From NCBI GenBank assembly GCA_030690165.1, contig JAUYHF010000055.1, positions 3,493 through 67,492 of the forward strand: DNA of 64,000 bases, in the 5' to 3' direction. This document shows, piece by piece, positions 49,693 to 57,593 of this stretch. Both the position numbers and the translations under genes were made by a program. Each line of letters begins with the position of its first letter. Position 1 is the first letter of the stretch. Below the pieces are notes generated by a model. The model did not search any database. It saw nothing but the letters and a program-made list of their open reading frames with translations, and was not told the DNA's origin. Origin of the DNA: Deltaproteobacteria bacterium. GTDB lineage: Bacteria; Desulfobacterota; GWC2-55-46; UBA9637.

Positions 49693-50079
49693 CTACTGCT
49701 TTGCCCTTATCAGCCTAACAGCGTCTATATTAAAATAAAGCGTCCTGGTGTATCTGTCAAAAAAATTTACATCTATCTTATAGCGAAGAGAAACCTCTAT
49801 GTCGGAATCCCTTCTATCCACAATAATATCCTTCTCCTCAATGGGAAGCCCAAACTCCTTAACCCTGATCATGATATATTTTACTATCTGCTCGTCAGTG
49901 TACAGATGAGCGTTATCGGCATCATTTGCAACCTCTGTATTTATCATGTAGTAAGTAATGTATGGCGGGGCAAATTTGATGCCGATATAGACCGCGGCAA
50001 CTATCAAAATAACCCAAAAGAGGGTCCCAATGCTTATCTTGCCGTCTTTATTCTTCCATCTCCTCCCCATTTTAAACAT
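49693..50079 (-). CDS. Hypothetical membrane-anchored protein (128 aa)
   Basis: Single N-terminal TM (IGTLFWVILIVAAVYIGIKF), no family recognised. Confidence 0.45.
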   Translation of the reverse strand: MFKMGRRWKNKDGKISIGTLFWVILIVAAVYIGIKFAPPYITYYMINTEVANDADNAHLYTDEQIVKYIMIRVKEFGLPIEEKDIIVDRRDSDIEVSLRYKIDVNFFDRYTRTLYFNIDAVRLIRAKQ

Positions 50080-50234
50080 TTATACACTGTTATTATTATG
50101 AGAGTCAATGTAAATTTTCCAAATTCCCTTTAATCGGTTGACTTTTGTAAATCGGTATAGTATATAAAAACCTCAGTTTATTAGTTTGTAATCCTGAAAA
50201 AGGCAGTTATTCCCAATTCAGAATTTGTTCACTG

Positions 50235-50308
50235 GCGGGCGTAATTCAATGGTAGAATGGAAGCTTCCCAAGCTTCATACGAGGGTTCGATTCCCTTCGC
50301 CCGCTCCA
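50235..50308 (+). tRNA. tRNA-Gly (anticodon CCC)
   Basis: Cloverleaf: acceptor GCGGGCG/CGCCCGC, anticodon stem GAAGC/GCTTC, loop TTCCCAA, T-loop TTCGATT, CCA encoded. Confidence 0.85.
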
Positions 50309-50331
50309 AAAAATAATATTACAGCCGTGAA

Positions 50332-50779
50332 AATGAAAAAGAGATATCATATTTTCTCCATATTATTCTCCATCTATTTTTCTGTCTTTGCCATATCTCC
50401 ACTTACATGCGCCTACAGCTATAATGATATTGCTGCACAAACGGATATCTCAATAAAAAATATAAGGTTATTTGCCATAGACCTGCTCTTATCATCGCTT
50501 GCCAAAAAGGAAAGCAGGGAACAGAATAATGACAACAATCCCGCATCTTCTTTCCATATTTTGCTGAAAAAGAAGAAGGCAACTTTATCTTCAAATAAGA
50601 TAGAAATATCAAGCAATGTTTTTTTAAAGACCGGCCATGCAACAGAGGTTTTTACCTTCTTGACGGAAACATTTTCTGCAATGTCAGCGCCTCAGGGTAA
50701 CAAATCTGTATTTCGAAACGGCTTTTATCTGCCCCATTCCGGCCTTTCGCCGCCTTTCATCACATCGCGCTTATCGTGA
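50332..50779 (+). CDS. Possible small secreted protein (149 aa), weak call
   Basis: ATG with N-terminal hydrophobic stretch; AT-rich, low-complexity; lies directly downstream of tRNA-Gly. Confidence 0.3.
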
Positions 50780-50911
50780 CCATATAACTTAATAATCTCA
50801 TCCAACATAAGATATGGCTTTATTAATCCGCAATTTGTATCAATTTGTTTTTTCACGTTCACATTGATTTTATCACAGAGAGTTAATATATTTTACATAG
50901 GAGGAAATATT

Positions 50912-51676
50912 ATGAAGAGATTTTTACTTTTTATGACAATCGCTATCCTGTTTACTGTTTGGGGATGCAGTAAAAAAGTCGTGACATCAGAGACAGCCGT
51001 TGGACAGATACCAAAGAAAGAGGCAGCCCAGACAGAGGCGGTCAAGGAGAAAGAAACCGCCGCAGTTACCGCGCCTGTTGAGGCTCCATCCATAACACCA
51101 GAAGCCGTGAAACAAGAGGAAGCTGTTACAGAGGAGAAAGAAGCCGCCGCAGTTGCCGCGCCTGTTGAAGTTCCATCCATAATACCAGAAACCGTGAAAT
51201 CAAAGGAAGCTGCTATAGAGGAGAAAGAAACTGCCGCAGTTACTGCGCCTGTTGAGGCTCCATCCATAATACCAGAAGCCGTGAAATCAAAGGAAGCTGC
51301 TATAGAGGAGAAAGAAACTGCCGCAGTTACTGCGCCTGTTGAGGTATTAAAGCTGCAGGACATATTCTTTGATTTCGACAGGTTCCTTATCAGGGAAGAG
51401 GCCAGGCCGGTTCTTGAGACAAATGCGGATTACTTGAAAGCCAATAAGGATTCTAAAATTCTTATTGAAGGCCACTGTGATGAAAGGGGAACCTCGGAAT
51501 ACAATATGGCCCTTGGCGAGAGAAGGGCGCAGTCTGCAAAAAAATACCTTATTGATCTGGGTATAGACCCATCGAGGATATCCACTATAAGTTACGGTAA
51601 AGAAAAGCCATTCTGCACAGACCACAACGAGGGATGCTGGCAAGAAAACAGAAGGGCGCATTTTACCATAAAGTAA
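50912..51676 (+). CDS. OmpA/Pal-family lipoprotein with ~29-aa tandem repeats in linker
   Basis: RBS GGAGG, lipobox LFTVWGC; four 87-nt repeats (ETAAVTAPVEAPSIIPEAVKSKEAAIEEK) between 51046 and 51340; C-terminal OmpA-like peptidoglycan-binding domain. Confidence 0.8.
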   Translation: MKRFLLFMTIAILFTVWGCSKKVVTSETAVGQIPKKEAAQTEAVKEKETAAVTAPVEAPSITPEAVKQEEAVTEEKEAAAVAAPVEVPSIIPETVKSKEAAIEEKETAAVTAPVEAPSIIPEAVKSKEAAIEEKETAAVTAPVEVLKLQDIFFDFDRFLIREEARPVLETNADYLKANKDSKILIEGHCDERGTSEYNMALGERRAQSAKKYLIDLGIDPSRISTISYGKEKPFCTDHNEGCWQENRRAHFTIK

Positions 51677-51751
51677 GAATCCTATCTGCATTTCTTATAC
51701 AAGATTTTATACACAACGTCACCGTAAAGGGAAGAACGTGGAGGTCTAATC

Positions 51752-54013
51752 ATGAAGATTACAATCCGACTTATTATTTCTCTCCTTTTTGCGGTGGCGC
51801 TCGTGGCTGCTGTCTTCTCATATTATCAGGTCAGCGCCGAAAAGGACCGTCTTACAGGCGAGCTGGAGCGGAGGACCATTATTCTGGCCGAGGGCATGCA
51901 TGAATCCATAATCCCACTTATAACATCCAATTCCCTTTCTAAACTAAACCGTCTCGTGACGCGGTTCGGAAACCGCGGACGGCTCAAAGGGGTAGCTGTA
52001 TACGACAGGCAGGGCAATATCATGGCAATAACACCTGATCTGGCGCTGAAGATTGAGAAGCCCCTTCCAGAGGTAGTAAGCGCCATCGAAGAAAAAAGTC
52101 CTGCGGGGATGTTTGTCCGTATTGATGACAATAATATGTATCTTTATGTCCTTCCTGTTCAGCAGGATGACGAGGTTATAGGCGCCATAACACTATTTCA
52201 CGAGGCCTCCTATATAGATGTGAGGATCAGGGAGATATGGAGACACAATCTTATCAGGCTTCTGATCCTCTCGTTTATGATCGTTATAATTACCCTTATA
52301 ATCGTGCGCTGGAGTATCACAGGCCCAATAGCCCGGATTGCGGAATGGATGAGTGAGTTAAGGAAAGGAAAGATAAACAGACCTATGAATTTTATAAAGG
52401 GAGACATACTGGCTCCCCTGATTTCTGAGGTTACGCATCTGGGCAGAAGCCTTGCCATGGCGCGCGCGAGGGCAGATGAGGAGGCAAAACTGCGTTTCCA
52501 TGCCGAGTCACTCTGGACAGCGCACAGGCTAAAGGAGCATATGCGTGTTGAACTCGGCGGCAAAAAATTGTTCATGGTCTCAAACAGGGAGCCTTACATG
52601 CACACCAAAGAGGGACGCATGGTCAAATGCATCGTACCGGCAGGCGGGGTGGTTACTGCGCTGGACCCTGTAATGAGGATATGCGACGGTATCTGGATCG
52701 CCCACGGCAGCGGAGATGCGGACAGGGAAAGAGTGGATGGCAATGACAAATTGCGTGTGCCGCCGGAAGAGCCCGCGTATACGCTCAAGAGGATATGGCT
52801 CACAAAAGAGGAGGAAGACGGCTATTATTACGGGTTTGCAAATGAGGGCATCTGGCCGCTTTGCCACATTACCCATACCCGCCCTGTCTTCCGTCTGGAG
52901 GACTGGGGGTATTATCAAAGGGTAAACGAAAAGTTTGCCGAGGTGCTGCTGGAAGAGATCTCCGGAGAAGAGTCGCCGCTGGTTTTAATCCAGGACTACC
53001 ATTTTGCCCTCCTTCCGCTTCTGGTCAAGGAAAAGCGGCCTGATGCGAAGGTATCCCTTTTCTGGCACATACCCTGGCCAAATCCTGAGGCCTATGGGAT
53101 ATGTCCATGGCTGCGGGAGATACTGATAGGCATGCTCGGGGCTGATATTATCGGTTTCCACACACAATTCCACTGTAATAATTTTTTGGATACCGTTGAT
53201 CGTTTTCTCGAATCAAAGCTCGACTGGGAACAATTCTCGGTAGAGCGGGGCGGCAGCACGACTATCGTCAAGCCATTTCCCATAAGCGTCGATTTTGATG
53301 GTTTAACACTGAATACCCCGGCTGCCCATGATAAAGAATCGCTAAAGGAAAATCTGCTCAAAGAGATTGGGGCGCAGGGCAAGATTATCGGCATAGGGGT
53401 CGATCGTGTTGATTATACAAAGGGTATCCCTGAACGGTTCAGGGCAATTGAGAGATTTCTGGAGAAATACCCTGATTTTATAGGCAGGTTTACCTTTGTA
53501 GAATTAGGGGCCCCGAGCCGGCTTCATGTAAAACGATACAGAGACCTGATGACTGAGGTGGAAGAGACTGTGGAGAAGATCAACTGGCGTTTTCAGACCA
53601 AAGGGTGGAAACCTATTGTCTTCCTTAAGGCACACCACAGCCATGATGAGATTAACCAATTTTATAAGATTGCTGACCTCTGTATGGTTACTTCCCTCCA
53701 TGACGGAATGAATCTGGTTGCGAAAGAGTTTGTCGCCTCCCGAAGCGATGAAGACGGTGCGTTAATCCTCAGCCAGTTTACCGGCGCTTCCCGCGAGCTA
53801 AAGGATGCGGTTATCGTAAACCCTTATGATATAGAAATGATGGCAGATGCCATATATATATCGCTCAACATGGATTCCTCTGAAAAGTCTGAGCGAATGA
53901 GACGGATGCGCGCTGCGGTAAGGGAACAAAATATTTACCGCTGGGCAGGGAATTTAATTACAAGCCTGGCGCGTCTAAGGCTGCCTGACACTTCAAATGA
54001 AAAGGCCGGATAA
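51752..54013 (+). CDS. otsA: Alpha,alpha-trehalose-phosphate synthase (GT20) with N-terminal 2TM sensor + HAMP extension
   Basis: C-terminal ~500 aa is canonical OtsA; N-terminal 240 aa has TM1, ~150-aa extracytoplasmic domain, TM2, HAMP-like helix. Confidence 0.85.
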   Translation: MKITIRLIISLLFAVALVAAVFSYYQVSAEKDRLTGELERRTIILAEGMHESIIPLITSNSLSKLNRLVTRFGNRGRLKGVAVYDRQGNIMAITPDLALKIEKPLPEVVSAIEEKSPAGMFVRIDDNNMYLYVLPVQQDDEVIGAITLFHEASYIDVRIREIWRHNLIRLLILSFMIVIITLIIVRWSITGPIARIAEWMSELRKGKINRPMNFIKGDILAPLISEVTHLGRSLAMARARADEEAKLRFHAESLWTAHRLKEHMRVELGGKKLFMVSNREPYMHTKEGRMVKCIVPAGGVVTALDPVMRICDGIWIAHGSGDADRERVDGNDKLRVPPEEPAYTLKRIWLTKEEEDGYYYGFANEGIWPLCHITHTRPVFRLEDWGYYQRVNEKFAEVLLEEISGEESPLVLIQDYHFALLPLLVKEKRPDAKVSLFWHIPWPNPEAYGICPWLREILIGMLGADIIGFHTQFHCNNFLDTVDRFLESKLDWEQFSVERGGSTTIVKPFPISVDFDGLTLNTPAAHDKESLKENLLKEIGAQGKIIGIGVDRVDYTKGIPERFRAIERFLEKYPDFIGRFTFVELGAPSRLHVKRYRDLMTEVEETVEKINWRFQTKGWKPIVFLKAHHSHDEINQFYKIADLCMVTSLHDGMNLVAKEFVASRSDEDGALILSQFTGASRELKDAVIVNPYDIEMMADAIYISLNMDSSEKSERMRRMRAAVREQNIYRWAGNLITSLARLRLPDTSNEKAG

Positions 54014-54875
54014 TACCTTAAAACCGATTTATATTTTTGGAAGGAATAGTGCTCAAGCCTGGCTTTCTGGAGCAGAAGGCTGCCGCAAGATGGCATTGTT
54101 TTTGGATTATGATGGCACATTGGCGCCTATTCAGAAAAACCCTGCCGAATGCATCCTGCCGGATGGACTGAGGAGACAATTGAGCGCGCTGGCAGACACA
54201 GATTGCTGCACTGTTTCCATCCTGAGCGGAAGAAGGCTTCATGACATCAAAAAAAGGATCGGTATCCGTAAGATTTACTATGGAGGAAATCACGGGATAG
54301 ATATCTGCGGTCCCGGTCTGAGATACACACATCCTGAGGCCATGCGAATAAAACCGCTTATTGACGATGTAAAAAAGAGGCTTGAAAAAGAAATCAGGGG
54401 GATTGCAGGCGCATGGCTTGAGGGAAAACTGTTTACATTGAGCCTGCATTTCCGTGCCGTAAGACAGGATAATATCCGGCATGTCAAAAAAATCTTTTAT
54501 AGGGTAATTGAGCGTTTTCCGGAAAAAGGACGTTTATCCGTAATCAGGGGGAAGAAGGTTCTGGAACTCGTTCCCAATATATCGTGGGGGAAAGGGGAGG
54601 CCAGCCTGTGGTTGCTGAAGCAATGGGGAGGCAGATACCTGCCTGTATATGTGGGAGATGACAAAACGGATGAGACCGCCTTTAAAGCACTTAGTAAAAC
54701 AGGCATAACCATCCGCATCGGGAAATCCAGGAATACATCAGCCCGCTTCTATCTTAAGGGATACCGGGAGGTTCCACGATTATTAGAGCAACTCAGGGAT
54801 ATAATAAAAAAACCTGCCCTTTATTCGGAGTTTGAAGGTGAGGCAAAATACTCATGCGCCAACCCACTGCATTGA
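53997..54875 (+). CDS. otsB: Trehalose-6-phosphate phosphatase
   Basis: HAD motif LFLDYDGTL; overlaps otsA by 17 nt. Confidence 0.85.
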   Translation: MKRPDNTLKPIYIFGRNSAQAWLSGAEGCRKMALFLDYDGTLAPIQKNPAECILPDGLRRQLSALADTDCCTVSILSGRRLHDIKKRIGIRKIYYGGNHGIDICGPGLRYTHPEAMRIKPLIDDVKKRLEKEIRGIAGAWLEGKLFTLSLHFRAVRQDNIRHVKKIFYRVIERFPEKGRLSVIRGKKVLELVPNISWGKGEASLWLLKQWGGRYLPVYVGDDKTDETAFKALSKTGITIRIGKSRNTSARFYLKGYREVPRLLEQLRDIIKKPALYSEFEGEAKYSCANPLH

Positions 54876-54944
54876 ATTAGTGTGTTGTTCTATACTCCTT
54901 TCTTGACAAAAAGATTTTGAAAGGATATATCTTAGCAAACTTAT

Positions 54945-55493
54945 ATGGATAAGCCTATACCTGTGAAAACGGAAAAAAAGATCAGGCAGCATTATTTTGT
55001 GGCAAAAGAACTGCAGATTACTATAACCATTCTGGTAGTATTGGCGCTTTTAGGCGGAGCGTTTTTACAGTCAATATCCTCGGCGCTAAGTTCATTTTTT
55101 GGCTTTACAACACCTGCTTTAACCATCTTTCTTACCATTGGTTATGTTGCGATTGTTGCAATTTTGTCCATCTTTTTTGCCCACAAGTTTCTCGGACCGT
55201 TTAAAAGACTGGAATACGAGATGAAGATCATTAGCAGCGGAGAGTTGGATAAACGGCTCTCTATCAGAACAAAAGATGACCTGTATGTCAGAAACTTTGT
55301 CGCCTATGTCAATAAATTTATAGAAAACTTTGAAAACATGAGCAAGGATTACAGCAAACTCCACAGCGTCATATCTATCCAAATGGGTGATATAATAAAA
55401 AAAATAGAAAAGGGGCAGCACAACCCGGAGGATATAAAGGAGACCCTCAAAACCATTCAGAGACATATACACGAATTAAGAGAGAAATGGTAA
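54945..55493 (+). CDS. Stand-alone 2TM + HAMP-like small membrane protein
   Basis: Two TM helices followed by GPFKRLEYEMKIISSGELDKRLSI (HAMP signature) and a coiled coil. Confidence 0.5.
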   Translation: MDKPIPVKTEKKIRQHYFVAKELQITITILVVLALLGGAFLQSISSALSSFFGFTTPALTIFLTIGYVAIVAILSIFFAHKFLGPFKRLEYEMKIISSGELDKRLSIRTKDDLYVRNFVAYVNKFIENFENMSKDYSKLHSVISIQMGDIIKKIEKGQHNPEDIKETLKTIQRHIHELREKW

Positions 55494-56302
55494 TCCCTTT
55501 CCTTAAAAATCTTTTCTTTATTGCCTTCACTATAATCCTTTTAATAGTTGATAACTTCATTGGCGAATGCGCATCGCAGCCAAAAATATCTAATGCCCTT
55601 AAAGGAACAAATGTTCAGCGTTCCATGGTAGTTGCCGTTATTGATGGAGACACCATTGAGATTGAAGGAGGGCAACGGGTAAGGTATCTTGGCATTGACA
55701 CCCCTGAGACAGGGCAGCCATTTTATGAAGAAGCAAGGAACAAAAATAAAGACTTTGTTCTTGGAAAGAATGTCAGATTGGAGGTGTGCAAAAGTGAACC
55801 AACTGACAAATATGGAAGGCTTCTTGCCTATGTTTACATAAACCAAACAATGGTCAATAGAGAGCTTCTAATATCCGGCTATGCCAGGATACTTATAATC
55901 CCTCCATGCGGCGTTGAAAAGGCAGACGAGTTCAGGCAATATCAAAAAGGAGCGATGAAAAAGAAGGTCGGACTGTGGGGTAAGAGAAAACCGGTGATAA
56001 TAAAAGATTTTATCCCTGCATCGGATGCTGCCAGATTTATTGATGAAAGGAAGGCAATATATGGAAAGGTCATGGGGGTGCGGGAAGGAAAAAATATAAT
56101 TTTTATTGAGATAGGAAATACCTCCAAAATAGACTTAAGGGTCGTGATATTTCAGCAGGATAAAAAGAACTTTAAAGATGACAGGATTGATCCCTTAACC
56201 CATTATCAGGGTAAAAAAGTAGTTGTATATGGAAAAATAAAAATGTATAAAGGAAACACTGAGGTTATCGTAGGCAGCCCATCTCAAATAGAGGTGTGGT
56301 GA
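55487..56302 (+). CDS. Secreted/membrane-anchored thermonuclease (SNase) homologue with C-terminal OB-fold-like domain
   Basis: [10 protein letters not shown]...YLGIDTPE...RLLAYVY SNase motifs; N-terminal hydrophobic anchor. Confidence 0.75.
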
Positions 56303-57078
56303 GCGAAGCGGCCATGCTGCTCGTTATTGACATAGGCAATACAAATATCGTCATTGGCATTTATGACAGGAACAGGCTTGCCCATCATTGGCGTCTTGGC
56401 ACAAAAAAGGCGCGGACTGCTGATGAGTACGGGATTATGATGATGGGCTTTTTTAATTTCGGCGGGATACAAATAGACAGTATTGACGGCGCCATACTAT
56501 CCTGTGTTGTCCCTCCGCTTACAGATACATTTCTTGAAATGTCGGAAGTATATTTTAAAATCAAACCAATCGTTGTCGGCCCCGGCATAAAGACAGGCGT
56601 GCCGATTATGACAGACAACCCAAAAGAGGTTGGCGCTGACAGGATTGTGAATGCGGTTGCCGCGTATGAAATTTATAAAAGCGCTGTTATCGTTGTTGAT
56701 TTCGGCACAGCCGCAACATTTGACTATGTGTCTCAAAAAGGGGAATATCTGGGCGGCGCTATTGCCCCCGGTATAGGCATATCAATGGATGCGCTTTTTC
56801 AAAGGGCTGCAAAACTTCCGAGGGTTGAAATATCCAAACCAAAAAATATTGTCGGCAAGAATACAGTTGACAGCATTCAGTCAGGCATATTTTATGGATA
56901 TATAGGGCTCGTGGATGGCATTGTTGAAAGGATGAAGAAAGAGGTTGGGGCAAAAACCAGGGTTGTGGCTACAGGCGGCTTTGCCGGACTTATTGCGCCG
57001 GAGAGCAGGACAATTGAAGATGTTAATGAGTTCCTGACCCTTGATGGCCTGAAGATTATTTATGAAAGGAATGTGTAA
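56296..57078 (+). CDS. coaX: Type III pantothenate kinase
   Basis: [22 protein letters not shown] fold. Confidence 0.85.
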
Positions 57079-57593
57079 TGATAGCAGAGTCTTCAGAGGA
57101 GAAGTTTAAACAAGGGATGCAATTTTTAAAAAACAACAATCTTGAGAAGGCAACGAGGTCGTTTGAAAAGGCATATCAAGAGGATAAGGAAAATGCAAGG
57201 TATATGTCTTATTACGGAATGTGCGTTGCAATGAAATGGGGAGAGATAGGGTTGGGAATTGAGCTCTGCACAAGGGCGGTAAAGAAGGAATTTTATAAGA
57301 CTGAATATTACATAAATCTTTCCAGGGTATATATTAAGGCCGACAATAAGAAAGGAGCCATTAATGTTTTAAAAAAAGGGCTCAGGTTTGACCCTGAAAA
57401 TGATATTATCCATGAAGAACTGGTAAAATTCGGGGCAAGAAAAAAACCTATAATACCATTTATGAATCGCTCTAATCCAATCAATAAGTTTCTCAGCATA
57501 TTTTTCAGGAAGACAATGCCTGGCCTTATCAGCAGGCTCAAAAGAGAAGAAAGAGACGTGAAGAAAGATGTGGGTGGAGCAAGGCAACTATGA
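57078..57593 (+). CDS. Tetratricopeptide-repeat protein
   Basis: TPR-like helical repeats. Confidence 0.55.
   Translation: MIAESSEEKFKQGMQFLKNNNLEKATRSFEKAYQEDKENARYMSYYGMCVAMKWGEIGLGIELCTRAVKKEFYKTEYYINLSRVYIKADNKKGAINVLKKGLRFDPENDIIHEELVKFGARKKPIIPFMNRSNPINKFLSIFFRKTMPGLISRLKREERDVKKDVGGARQL

Follow-up and report, generated by a model that had tools for sequence, protein, structure and literature searches.

The window analysed here, a 64,000-nucleotide stretch of contig JAUYHF010000055.1 from a Deltaproteobacteria bacterium (GenBank assembly GCA_030690165.1), contains a gene that joins a membrane-spanning sensor module to a trehalose-6-phosphate (T6P) synthase, here named sensor-OtsA. A single open reading frame (ORF) of 753 aa encodes a first transmembrane helix (TM1), a periplasmic domain, a second transmembrane helix (TM2), a HAMP-like module and a complete glycosyltransferase family 20 (GT20) domain, in that order. 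This sensor-HAMP-OtsA design is conserved and apparently undescribed. A sequence-only reading of the same DNA had recognized TM1, an extracytoplasmic domain, TM2 and a HAMP-like helix ahead of GT20, and had likened them to the input architecture of histidine kinases and chemoreceptors placed on a metabolic enzyme. This arrangement was confirmed by two hydropathy peaks, the maintenance of both halves in one frame at almost all related loci, the WalK-like fold of the sensor, the profile alignment of the HAMP and the intact catalytic residues of the enzyme. The architectural part of that reading therefore stands, whereas the relation that it hinted at with a neighbouring gene was not upheld; as for its third part, we infer that trehalose synthesis is gated by a signal without a two-component relay, which is the most economical reading.

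Architecture and conservation of sensor-OtsA

The Kyte-Doolittle profile of the complete protein (19-residue windows) showed exactly two strong hydrophobic peaks and no others, and transmembrane helices are thus present by hydropathy. The peak of TM2 contains LIRLLILSFMIVIITLIIVRW, and the segment straight after this helix is SITGPIARIAEWMSELRKG (residues 188-206). Since the N-terminal side of TM1 (K2 and R6, cytoplasmic) and the segment that follows TM2 are positively charged, residues 26-165 should be periplasmic; the region 51752-52480 comprises TM1, the periplasmic domain, TM2 and HAMP. TM1 was treated as an N-terminal membrane anchor. A cleavable signal peptide was considered and rejected: the window protein has a possible site (VSA followed by E), but its relatives have R, E or Q at position -1, and the structural model gives one continuous helix from the membrane into the sensor domain. 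The OtsA of E. coli K-12, with 474 aa, has no such extension, in agreement with the earlier remark that OtsA is normally a soluble enzyme of ~470 aa.

From an alignment of 86 sequences, an AlphaFold 2 (AF2) model was made for residues 1-270; its mean predicted local distance difference test score (pLDDT) was 85.6, with values of ~90-97 across the periplasmic domain. In this model, a helix (2-58) runs from the membrane into the domain and is followed by a short helix, a five-stranded sheet with intervening helices (62-151), and a helix (153-190) in which the last helix of the sensor domain runs on as TM2. The predicted layout is that of the PDC fold, with its long N-terminal helix, central antiparallel sheet with helices and C-terminal helix into the membrane. 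The best Foldseek match in the PDB was the WalK N-terminal module (E = 1.2e-8, template modelling score TMq of 0.60 over 256 columns), the top entry being the WalK-YycH integrative model. It was followed by crystal structures of the WalK extracellular domain (template modelling scores of 0.71-0.79, root-mean-square deviation of ~2.6 A) and by the sensor domains of KinD, CitA, DctB and DcuS, all these matches including WalK ranging from E = 1e-8 to 1e-3. At the sequence level, the NCBIfam WalK model (positions 7-257) aligned with residues 1-245 (E = 1.7e-10), and the family profile matched the PDB sensor domains 3B42 (a Geobacter methyl-accepting chemotaxis protein) and 5IS1 (WalK) at E ~1e-4. 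Based on the Foldseek and family-profile matches, the modelled periplasmic region is predicted to be a PDC/single-Cache-like sensor domain. The Pfam Cache matches were all below threshold (sCache_3_2 in five of 21 members, dCache_3 in two and Cache_WalK in one), and the window protein had none. Conservation reaches 85% or more at 40 periplasmic positions, among them those of the motifs RFGNRERLxG and DASYI, which map to helix-to-strand and strand-to-helix junctions beside the membrane-proximal helices. A heme-c sensor like that of Geobacter 3B42 was excluded, given that the periplasmic domain has no cysteine.

Straight after TM2 (~residue 188) there is a module of ~50 residues with a helix-connector-helix layout and a conserved Pro and Glu, as in HAMP domains. 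The AF2 model shows helices at 192-204 and 221-251 separated by a connector and, after a short break, a further helix at 257-267/268. The first HAMP helix (AS1, 192-204) has the invariant P192 and a clear 3.5-residue periodicity, the connector has 16 residues (205-220), and the second helix (AS2) starts at 221 and contains the invariant E226 and L234; P192 and E226, the signature residues of HAMP domains, show 100% conservation. The Pfam HAMP model (PF00672) scored the window protein below its cut-off (13.4 vs 25 bits, E = 0.098), and family member P0209 reached 19.7 bits. The family HAMP profile aligned without gaps to E. coli Tar 216-263 and Tsr 217-263, and its hhalign comparison with the HAMPs of E. 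coli Tar, Tsr, Tap, EnvZ and CpxA gave a probability of 78.5% (P = 1.7e-5, score 28.0), while 20 column-shuffled decoys used as controls gave probabilities of at most 2.2% and scores of at most 14.3. In a search of the whole PDB, the profile covered the full-length Af1503 HAMP at E = 0.27-0.5. With moderate confidence, the module can be regarded as a divergent HAMP.

The spacer between this module and the enzyme (residues 241-270) is composed of an AEEEAxLR segment, a break at the invariant W255-T256, and a helix (257-268) that leads into strand beta-1 of GT20. This strand bears R279, equivalent to E. coli Arg9, and the Gly-rich donor loop is located ~20 residues further on. An ungapped stack of 265 sequences anchored on the SNREP motif retained conservation back to the start of AS2, and lost it in the HAMP connector only. 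The distance from W-T to SNREP was 22 residues in 176 out of 191 sequences and 21 in the other 15, indicating that the HAMP output helix and the GT20 strand are joined by a link of essentially fixed length.

The GT20 half matched PF00982 over residues 272-740 with 392.2 bits (cut-off 32.5, E = 4e-117), covering profile positions 2-472 of 473, and the OtsA and Tps1 chains of the PDB matched it at E = 1e-76 to 1e-53. Among the GT20 subfamilies the OtsA models were the best: the OtsA equivalog TIGR02400 gave 426.1 bits (cut-off 564.85), PRK14501 gave 481 (cut-off 634) and GgpS gave 297.6. A score below the equivalog cut-off points to a divergent subfamily, so that function was assigned from residues and genomic context. 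Residues R279, G299, Y359, W368, D415 and H439 aligned identically with E. coli R9, G22, Y76, W85, D130 and H154 (mature numbering here and below), as did R552, K557, R590, D651 and E659 with R262, K267, R300, D361 and E369, and these eleven positions are 99-100% conserved in 193 family members. Their catalytic and substrate-binding roles in the E. coli enzyme are those that we take from the 1GZ5 and 1UQU structures, R9 being the residue that binds glucose-6-phosphate. The catalytic residues, the best-scoring OtsA subfamily and the adjacent otsB gene make the predicted identity of the GT20 half as a T6P synthase sound. The sugar donor is a separate matter. His629 of the family is aligned with E. 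coli F340 (Met1 numbering), and we take the mature F339 of the E. coli enzyme to be the Phe that stacks on uracil; with a His in place of this Phe, UDP-glucose cannot be assumed as the donor.

Eleven other Cys and His positions of the GT20 half are 93-100% conserved in the 193 members (C311, C371, H375, C451, H470, H474, C475, H629, H631, C644 and H650), and in E. coli OtsA they are A, F, L, L, Q, D, R, F, R, G and R, respectively. Several are found within or beside the substrate-binding motifs WPLCHITHTRP, GICPW, GFHxQFHCNNFL, KAHHSH and LHDGMNLV. In an AF2 model of the full-length protein, three of the eight low-confidence segments (360-378, 440-452 and 471-523, pLDDT <50) hold the members of this set that belong to the N-terminal domain. 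The Cys/His set could be a metal or redox site, or a sign of a different sugar-nucleotide donor.

A full-length search retrieved more than 120 homologue clusters of 737-772 aa, with 68-91% identity and 98-100% coverage, of which the named ones carry only the label "trehalose-6-phosphate synthase" (for example, PIY86349.1, PKL52134.1 and MBI5420289.1). An identical protein is present on the independent Logan contig SRR13727534_101714. The N-terminal 270 residues retrieved 989 representative clusters at E ≤ 1e-3, including 100 at E ≤ 1e-30, and architecture was inspected in the best 150 of these representative matches and the best ~240 matches altogether. The sensor module continues into GT20 in all of the 82 listed matches long enough to judge, and no kinase continuation was found among the best ~240.

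The species genomes of GTDB were scanned with one conserved sensor-domain peptide and a 7-sequence alignment, which gave at least 109 relatives, and 80 loci were kept (L002-L081). The relatives belong to Nitrospirota (Thermodesulfovibrionia), Elusimicrobiota, Omnitrophota, Verrucomicrobiota (Verrucomicrobiia), Planctomycetota (Planctomycetia), Acidobacteriota (Terriglobia, Acidiferrales and Bryobacteraceae), Methylomirabilota (including Ca. Methylomirabilis oxygeniifera) and the Desulfobacterota-type "Deltaproteobacteria" (including Deferrimicrobia and the cultured Syntrophorhabdus aromaticivorans UI), and the family spans at least eight phyla. Sensor and GT20 are in a single frame in 79 of the 80 loci, and the remaining one runs off the end of its contig. 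Homologues thus show one continuous gene, and not a separate upstream gene fused by a frameshift. Over 2,346 pairs, GT20 identity was correlated with the identity of the periplasmic domain (r = 0.90) and of the TM2-HAMP-spacer region (r = 0.92); it is at least 56% within the family, and ~32% to E. coli OtsA. The co-divergence of sensor, HAMP and GT20 fits one ancient fusion, inherited and transferred as a unit.

Some members depart from the common form. At loci L013, L025, L041 and L064 the sensor-otsA frame ends early, at 367-646 codons, and similarity to GT20 and otsB goes on downstream; three of these loci are from metagenome-assembled genomes with long contigs, and L025 is on a 7.7-kb contig. 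These early stops are probably frameshift errors or pseudogenes. The member P0209 (913 aa) has ~176 additional N-terminal residues before the sensor module, and the query matched it in two stretches; the extension may stem from a wrongly called start or from duplication of part of the sensor domain. In S. aromaticivorans UI (L028, NZ_KI867150.1, 5938-7794, plus strand) nearly all of GT20 is missing: a 618-aa ORF comprises the sensor, HAMP, spacer and the first ~35 residues of GT20 (to ...PAGGLVTAL), followed by a complete OtsB domain (LFLDFDGTL...). This is either a natural in-frame deletion that makes a sensor-HAMP-phosphatase chimera or an error of the draft assembly.

Table 1. Features of the sensor-otsA gene and its downstream partner (positions in the window)
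Feature	Position	Strand	Basis
Sensor-OtsA gene, 753 aa and stop codon	51752..54013	+	ORF list
Ribosome-binding site GGAGG, 7 nt ahead of ATG	51740..51744	+	Read from sequence
TM1, residues ~3-25	51758..51826	+	Hydropathy maximum 2.6; AF2 helix
Periplasmic sensor domain, residues 26-165, predicted PDC/single-Cache-like fold	51827..52246	+	AF2, Foldseek, profile
TM2, residues ~166-188	52247..52315	+	Hydropathy maximum 3.0; AF2 helix 153-190
HAMP-like module, residues 189-240	52316..52471	+	AF2, Tar/Tsr alignment, hhalign
Output helix and spacer, residues 241-270	52472..52561	+	Ungapped stacking, conservation
GT20 catalytic domain, residues 271-745	52562..53986	+	PF00982, PDB matches, catalytic residues
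otsB, T6P phosphatase	53997..54875	+	Pfam Trehalose_PPase, TIGR00685

Genomic neighbourhood

The gene directly downstream of sensor-otsA in the window is otsB (Table 1), identified by Pfam Trehalose_PPase (3.9e-39) and TIGR00685 (138.9 bits, cut-off 68). Its longest ORF overlaps otsA by 17 nt, although the gene caller on L001 picked a later start (261 aa), and it is predicted to be the co-transcribed partner of sensor-otsA. An OtsB homologue is found directly downstream in ~50 of the 80 related loci. Two other genes recur next to them on the same strand: a TreT-type trehalose synthase (PF21269 and GT1 domain) in 41 loci, and a DUF5752 protein in 43 (for instance, L076 8969-10207 and L007 4023-4745). 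The presence of TreT in about half of the loci indicates a trehalose gene cluster, and the recurrence of DUF5752 alongside these genes points to a part for this protein in trehalose metabolism; both genes are absent from the 64-kb window. In 12 loci, a small gene located ~100 bp ahead of sensor-otsA, in the same orientation, codes for a secreted DUF5818 protein of ~113 aa (L078, 5236-5577), which may be a lineage-specific partner in the periplasm.

Among the window ORFs on either side of otsA and otsB, no kinase or response-regulator gene was identified. In the related loci, a recurrent neighbour cluster (13 loci, ~2.9 kb from otsA) had no Pfam identification, and its representative looks like a sensor histidine kinase. 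A promoter and terminator scan of 50000-57200 gave 24 promoter-like sites against 14 expected, none of them obviously placed, and an Rfam scan of the window found three tRNAs only, with no riboswitch close to the sensor-OtsA gene.

The gene upstream of sensor-otsA (50864-51676, plus strand) encodes an OmpA/Pal-like lipoprotein. Its linker has ~3 tandem copies of a ~29-aa unit, KE(K)ETAAVTAPVEAPSIIPEAVKSKEAAIEE, which show up on the minus strand of the DNA as three copies of a hairpin-like match, CGCAGTAACTGCG.

The next-but-one gene downstream (54945-55493, plus strand) had been described in the sequence-only reading as a stand-alone protein with two transmembrane helices and a HAMP. This description agrees with its 182 aa, two hydrophobic segments and sub-threshold HAMP match (19.2 vs 25 bits). 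The hinted relation to otsA does not hold, given that no homologue was found beside any of the 80 sensor-otsA loci. It belongs to a family of 181-185 aa (55 clusters) with almost no periplasmic loop and a C-terminal helical region. In three other genomes (L083, L084 and L086) its homologue is just upstream of an SNase-family nuclease gene, sometimes overlapping it, and no otsA or otsB was found within ~6 kb on either side. In the window, too, it overlaps an SNase-family gene (55487-56302, plus strand), whose product has a weak, sub-threshold OB-fold match. A functional tie to otsA was consequently dropped, and the position of this gene after otsB can be regarded as incidental.

Proposed signal gating and alternative readings

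The reading that we consider rather probable is that of a receptor-type enzyme: the GT20 activity of sensor-OtsA would be modulated by a periplasmic cue that acts through TM2 and HAMP, without a relay or transcription. Input, transmembrane helices, HAMP and output are on one polypeptide, which is the layout of one-component receptors, and the output is a GT20 metabolic enzyme instead of a signalling domain (cyclase, kinase, phosphatase or chemotaxis protein). Sensor-OtsA would be an inner-membrane protein, probably dimeric. A periplasmic or envelope cue would bring about a conformational change in the sensor domain and TM2, the HAMP would turn this change into a rotation or tilt of the output helices, and the rigid, fixed-length spacer would reposition the N-terminal Rossmann domain or the arrangement of one GT20 domain to the other. 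The enzyme would then flip between low and high activity, in a direction that the model can only presume, and OtsB would take the phosphate off T6P to give trehalose. Compatible-solute synthesis could in this way be controlled within seconds, with no kinase, regulator or transcription step. The cue can be guessed at: candidates are osmolarity, ionic strength, an envelope stress linked to desiccation, and an external solute, for instance trehalose itself, an osmotic or desiccation cue being suggested by the role of trehalose alone. The gating reading gains strength from the fixed spacer, from the high conservation of the periplasmic domain and from the parallel divergence of sensor and enzyme.

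Several points weigh against it. Gating by a signal is something that we infer from sequences and models. The active site of GT-B enzymes is inside one subunit, so that there is no precedent for HAMP control of this kind. No member tested had a HAMP match at the Pfam threshold, and none of 21 diverse members had one at E ≤ 0.01. The 3.5-residue periodicity of the output helix is weak, and no canonical coiled coil or signalling helix is claimed for it. The full-length AF2 monomer was of low quality (pLDDT 71.7, predicted template modelling score 0.42), with low confidence at the junction (243-252), which is insufficient for judging interdomain geometry. Finally, the architecture is known for the best 150 of the 989 representative matches only.

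The main rival is that the N-terminal module is a mere membrane tether or dimerisation scaffold, which passes no signal and in which the HAMP-like stalk is structural, serving, for instance, to place trehalose synthesis at membranes in need of protection, or to bring the enzyme together with OtsB, TreT or an exporter. The lack of a known signal or ligand, the divergence of the HAMP below the Pfam threshold and the absence of a clear heptad pattern in the output helix would agree with a tether, as would the oligomeric state and allosteric regulation that soluble OtsA already has (PMC6879718). For a tether, however, there would be no need of a folded periplasmic domain of ~140 aa in which 40 positions reach 85% conservation or more across phyla, or of a spacer whose length is invariant. 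The module is also the complete input unit of WalK-type kinases, and it keeps P192 and E226 in every member. A purely structural role is disfavoured by the conserved periplasmic domain and the fixed spacer, and we consider it unlikely. Signal regulation could also work through an accessory membrane or periplasmic protein, or through the state of the bilayer sensed by the transmembrane helices, with no sensing of a small ligand or osmolarity. WalK, the closest structural relative, has to our knowledge an extracellular domain with no agreed ligand, and its activity is set by YycH and YycI; it is in keeping with an accessory protein that the top Foldseek entry was a model of WalK with YycH, and that the conserved periplasmic motifs are next to the membrane-proximal helices. 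Nevertheless, no accessory gene is conserved across phyla, since OtsB, TreT and DUF5752 alone recur and DUF5818 is limited to 12 loci, and the neighbouring gene for a HAMP membrane protein is unrelated. We consider this version of signal regulation less likely than the other two, yet a real possibility in view of the kinship with WalK.

Two further readings question the parts themselves. The GT20 domain might not be an output at all, but a sugar-phosphate-sensing or catalytically dead regulator, like plant class II trehalose phosphate synthases, that signals outward or to partners. Its score under the NCBIfam OtsA cut-off and the family-specific invariant Cys and His near the substrate-binding motifs would allow this, but the family maintains all eleven positions that serve catalysis and substrate binding in E. 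coli OtsA, a T6P phosphatase gene comes directly after sensor-otsA in most genomes, and OtsA is the best-scoring GT20 subfamily, making a dead enzyme very improbable. The fusion could also be an assembly or frameshift artefact that joins a separate membrane-protein gene to otsA. Several N-terminal-only fragments (200-300 aa) are present in databases, some of them from clusters with long contigs, and a few long-read metagenome-assembled loci, the four mentioned above, show premature stops. Against these stand the independent species assemblies that, with the one exception at a contig end, keep both parts in one frame, the full-length clusters from different sources, the strongly maintained junction (W255, T256 and L260 at 99-100%) and the same protein on the Logan contig, so that an artefact was ruled out and retains practically no credibility.

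A more specific form of the receptor-type reading, possible but doubtful, is that sensor-OtsA is the first receptor-type compatible-solute synthase, whose Cache-like domain senses osmolarity, water activity or a solute and whose HAMP switches a GT-B enzyme. In the same proposal, the Cys/His set could add a cytoplasmic metal or redox input, integrating stress from outside and inside.

Relation to known systems and biological meaning

The best match of the sensor-OtsA N-terminus, in both sequence and structure, is WalK (YycG), which has TM1, an extracytoplasmic PDC/Cache-like domain of ~140 aa, TM2 and HAMP in the same order. WalK goes on to PAS, DHp and ATPase domains and to phosphotransfer to WalR, whereas in sensor-OtsA the HAMP output helix leads straight into a GT-B glycosyltransferase; their identity is ~16-17%. 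HAMP-coupled receptor enzymes such as the HAMP-adenylate cyclase Rv3645 and the HAMP-GGDEF diguanylate cyclases, together with the chemoreceptors, also have an extracytoplasmic input, two transmembrane helices, a HAMP and an output on one polypeptide, and the HAMP of sensor-OtsA has the length and register of those in Tar and Tsr. They differ in that their outputs are second-messenger or protein-signalling ones, with active sites or surfaces formed across the dimer, whereas sensor-OtsA has as its output a GT-B enzyme of primary metabolism, the active site of which lies inside one subunit. In the literature searched we found no glycosyltransferase or compatible-solute synthase described in the role of a HAMP output, and we know of no HAMP precedent for a GT-B metabolic enzyme.

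The enzyme half has the fold and the catalytic and substrate-binding residues of soluble OtsA (E. coli b1896) and of mycobacterial and fungal Tps1, and E. coli OtsA is likewise paired with otsB. The E. coli protein is cytoplasmic, and it lacks the N-terminal extension and the invariant Cys and His of the sensor-OtsA family. Soluble OtsA is regulated allosterically or transcriptionally, not across the membrane; the mycobacterial enzyme, for example, responds to 2-oxoglutarate and 2-phosphoglycerate (PMC6879718).

Membrane proteins such as ProP, BetP and OpuA sense an osmotic or ionic cue and raise compatible solutes in seconds without transcription. Sensor-OtsA may share this physiological logic, a resemblance that is functional and hypothetical only, since those proteins transport solutes instead of synthesizing them and lack a Cache-TM-HAMP module. 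The nearest published idea is the TPSP-GT-mechanosensitive-channel (TPSP-GT-MSC) operon of Thermoproteus tenax, which ties T6P synthesis to a membrane osmosensing element, with post-translational activation by protein contacts (PMC3634074). There, the mechanosensitive channel is encoded by a gene of its own, and it is a separate glycosyltransferase that, in a complex, brings about the activation, whereas in sensor-OtsA the sensor and the synthase are one polypeptide joined through HAMP. No membrane-spanning or HAMP-linked OtsA was described in the full-text literature searched, a body that leaves out most subscription journals and gives absence of evidence only, and a 2024 review of alpha-glucan and trehalose enzymes describes no such protein.

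As a protectant, trehalose is of major importance under osmotic stress, drying, heat and cold, and the short-term tuning of its synthesis in bacteria has been explained mostly by transcription and cytoplasmic allostery. The current label of these ~750-aa proteins, "trehalose-6-phosphate synthase" alone, hides their sensor half. A HAMP joined to an enzyme with an intrasubunit active site puts the generality of HAMP output mechanisms to the test, with a product that is easy to assay. Sensor-OtsA occurs in over 100 species from lineages that matter in the environment and are for the most part uncultured, among them soil Acidobacteriota as well as Nitrospirota, Methylomirabilota, Elusimicrobiota and Omnitrophota. 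If the gating reading is true, these bacteria would have a third route, an immediate envelope-driven control of trehalose synthesis without a relay; and if the doubtful, more specific proposal of a first receptor-type synthase also holds, stress would be integrated at the level of the enzyme in soil and subsurface Acidobacteriota, Nitrospirota and Methylomirabilota.

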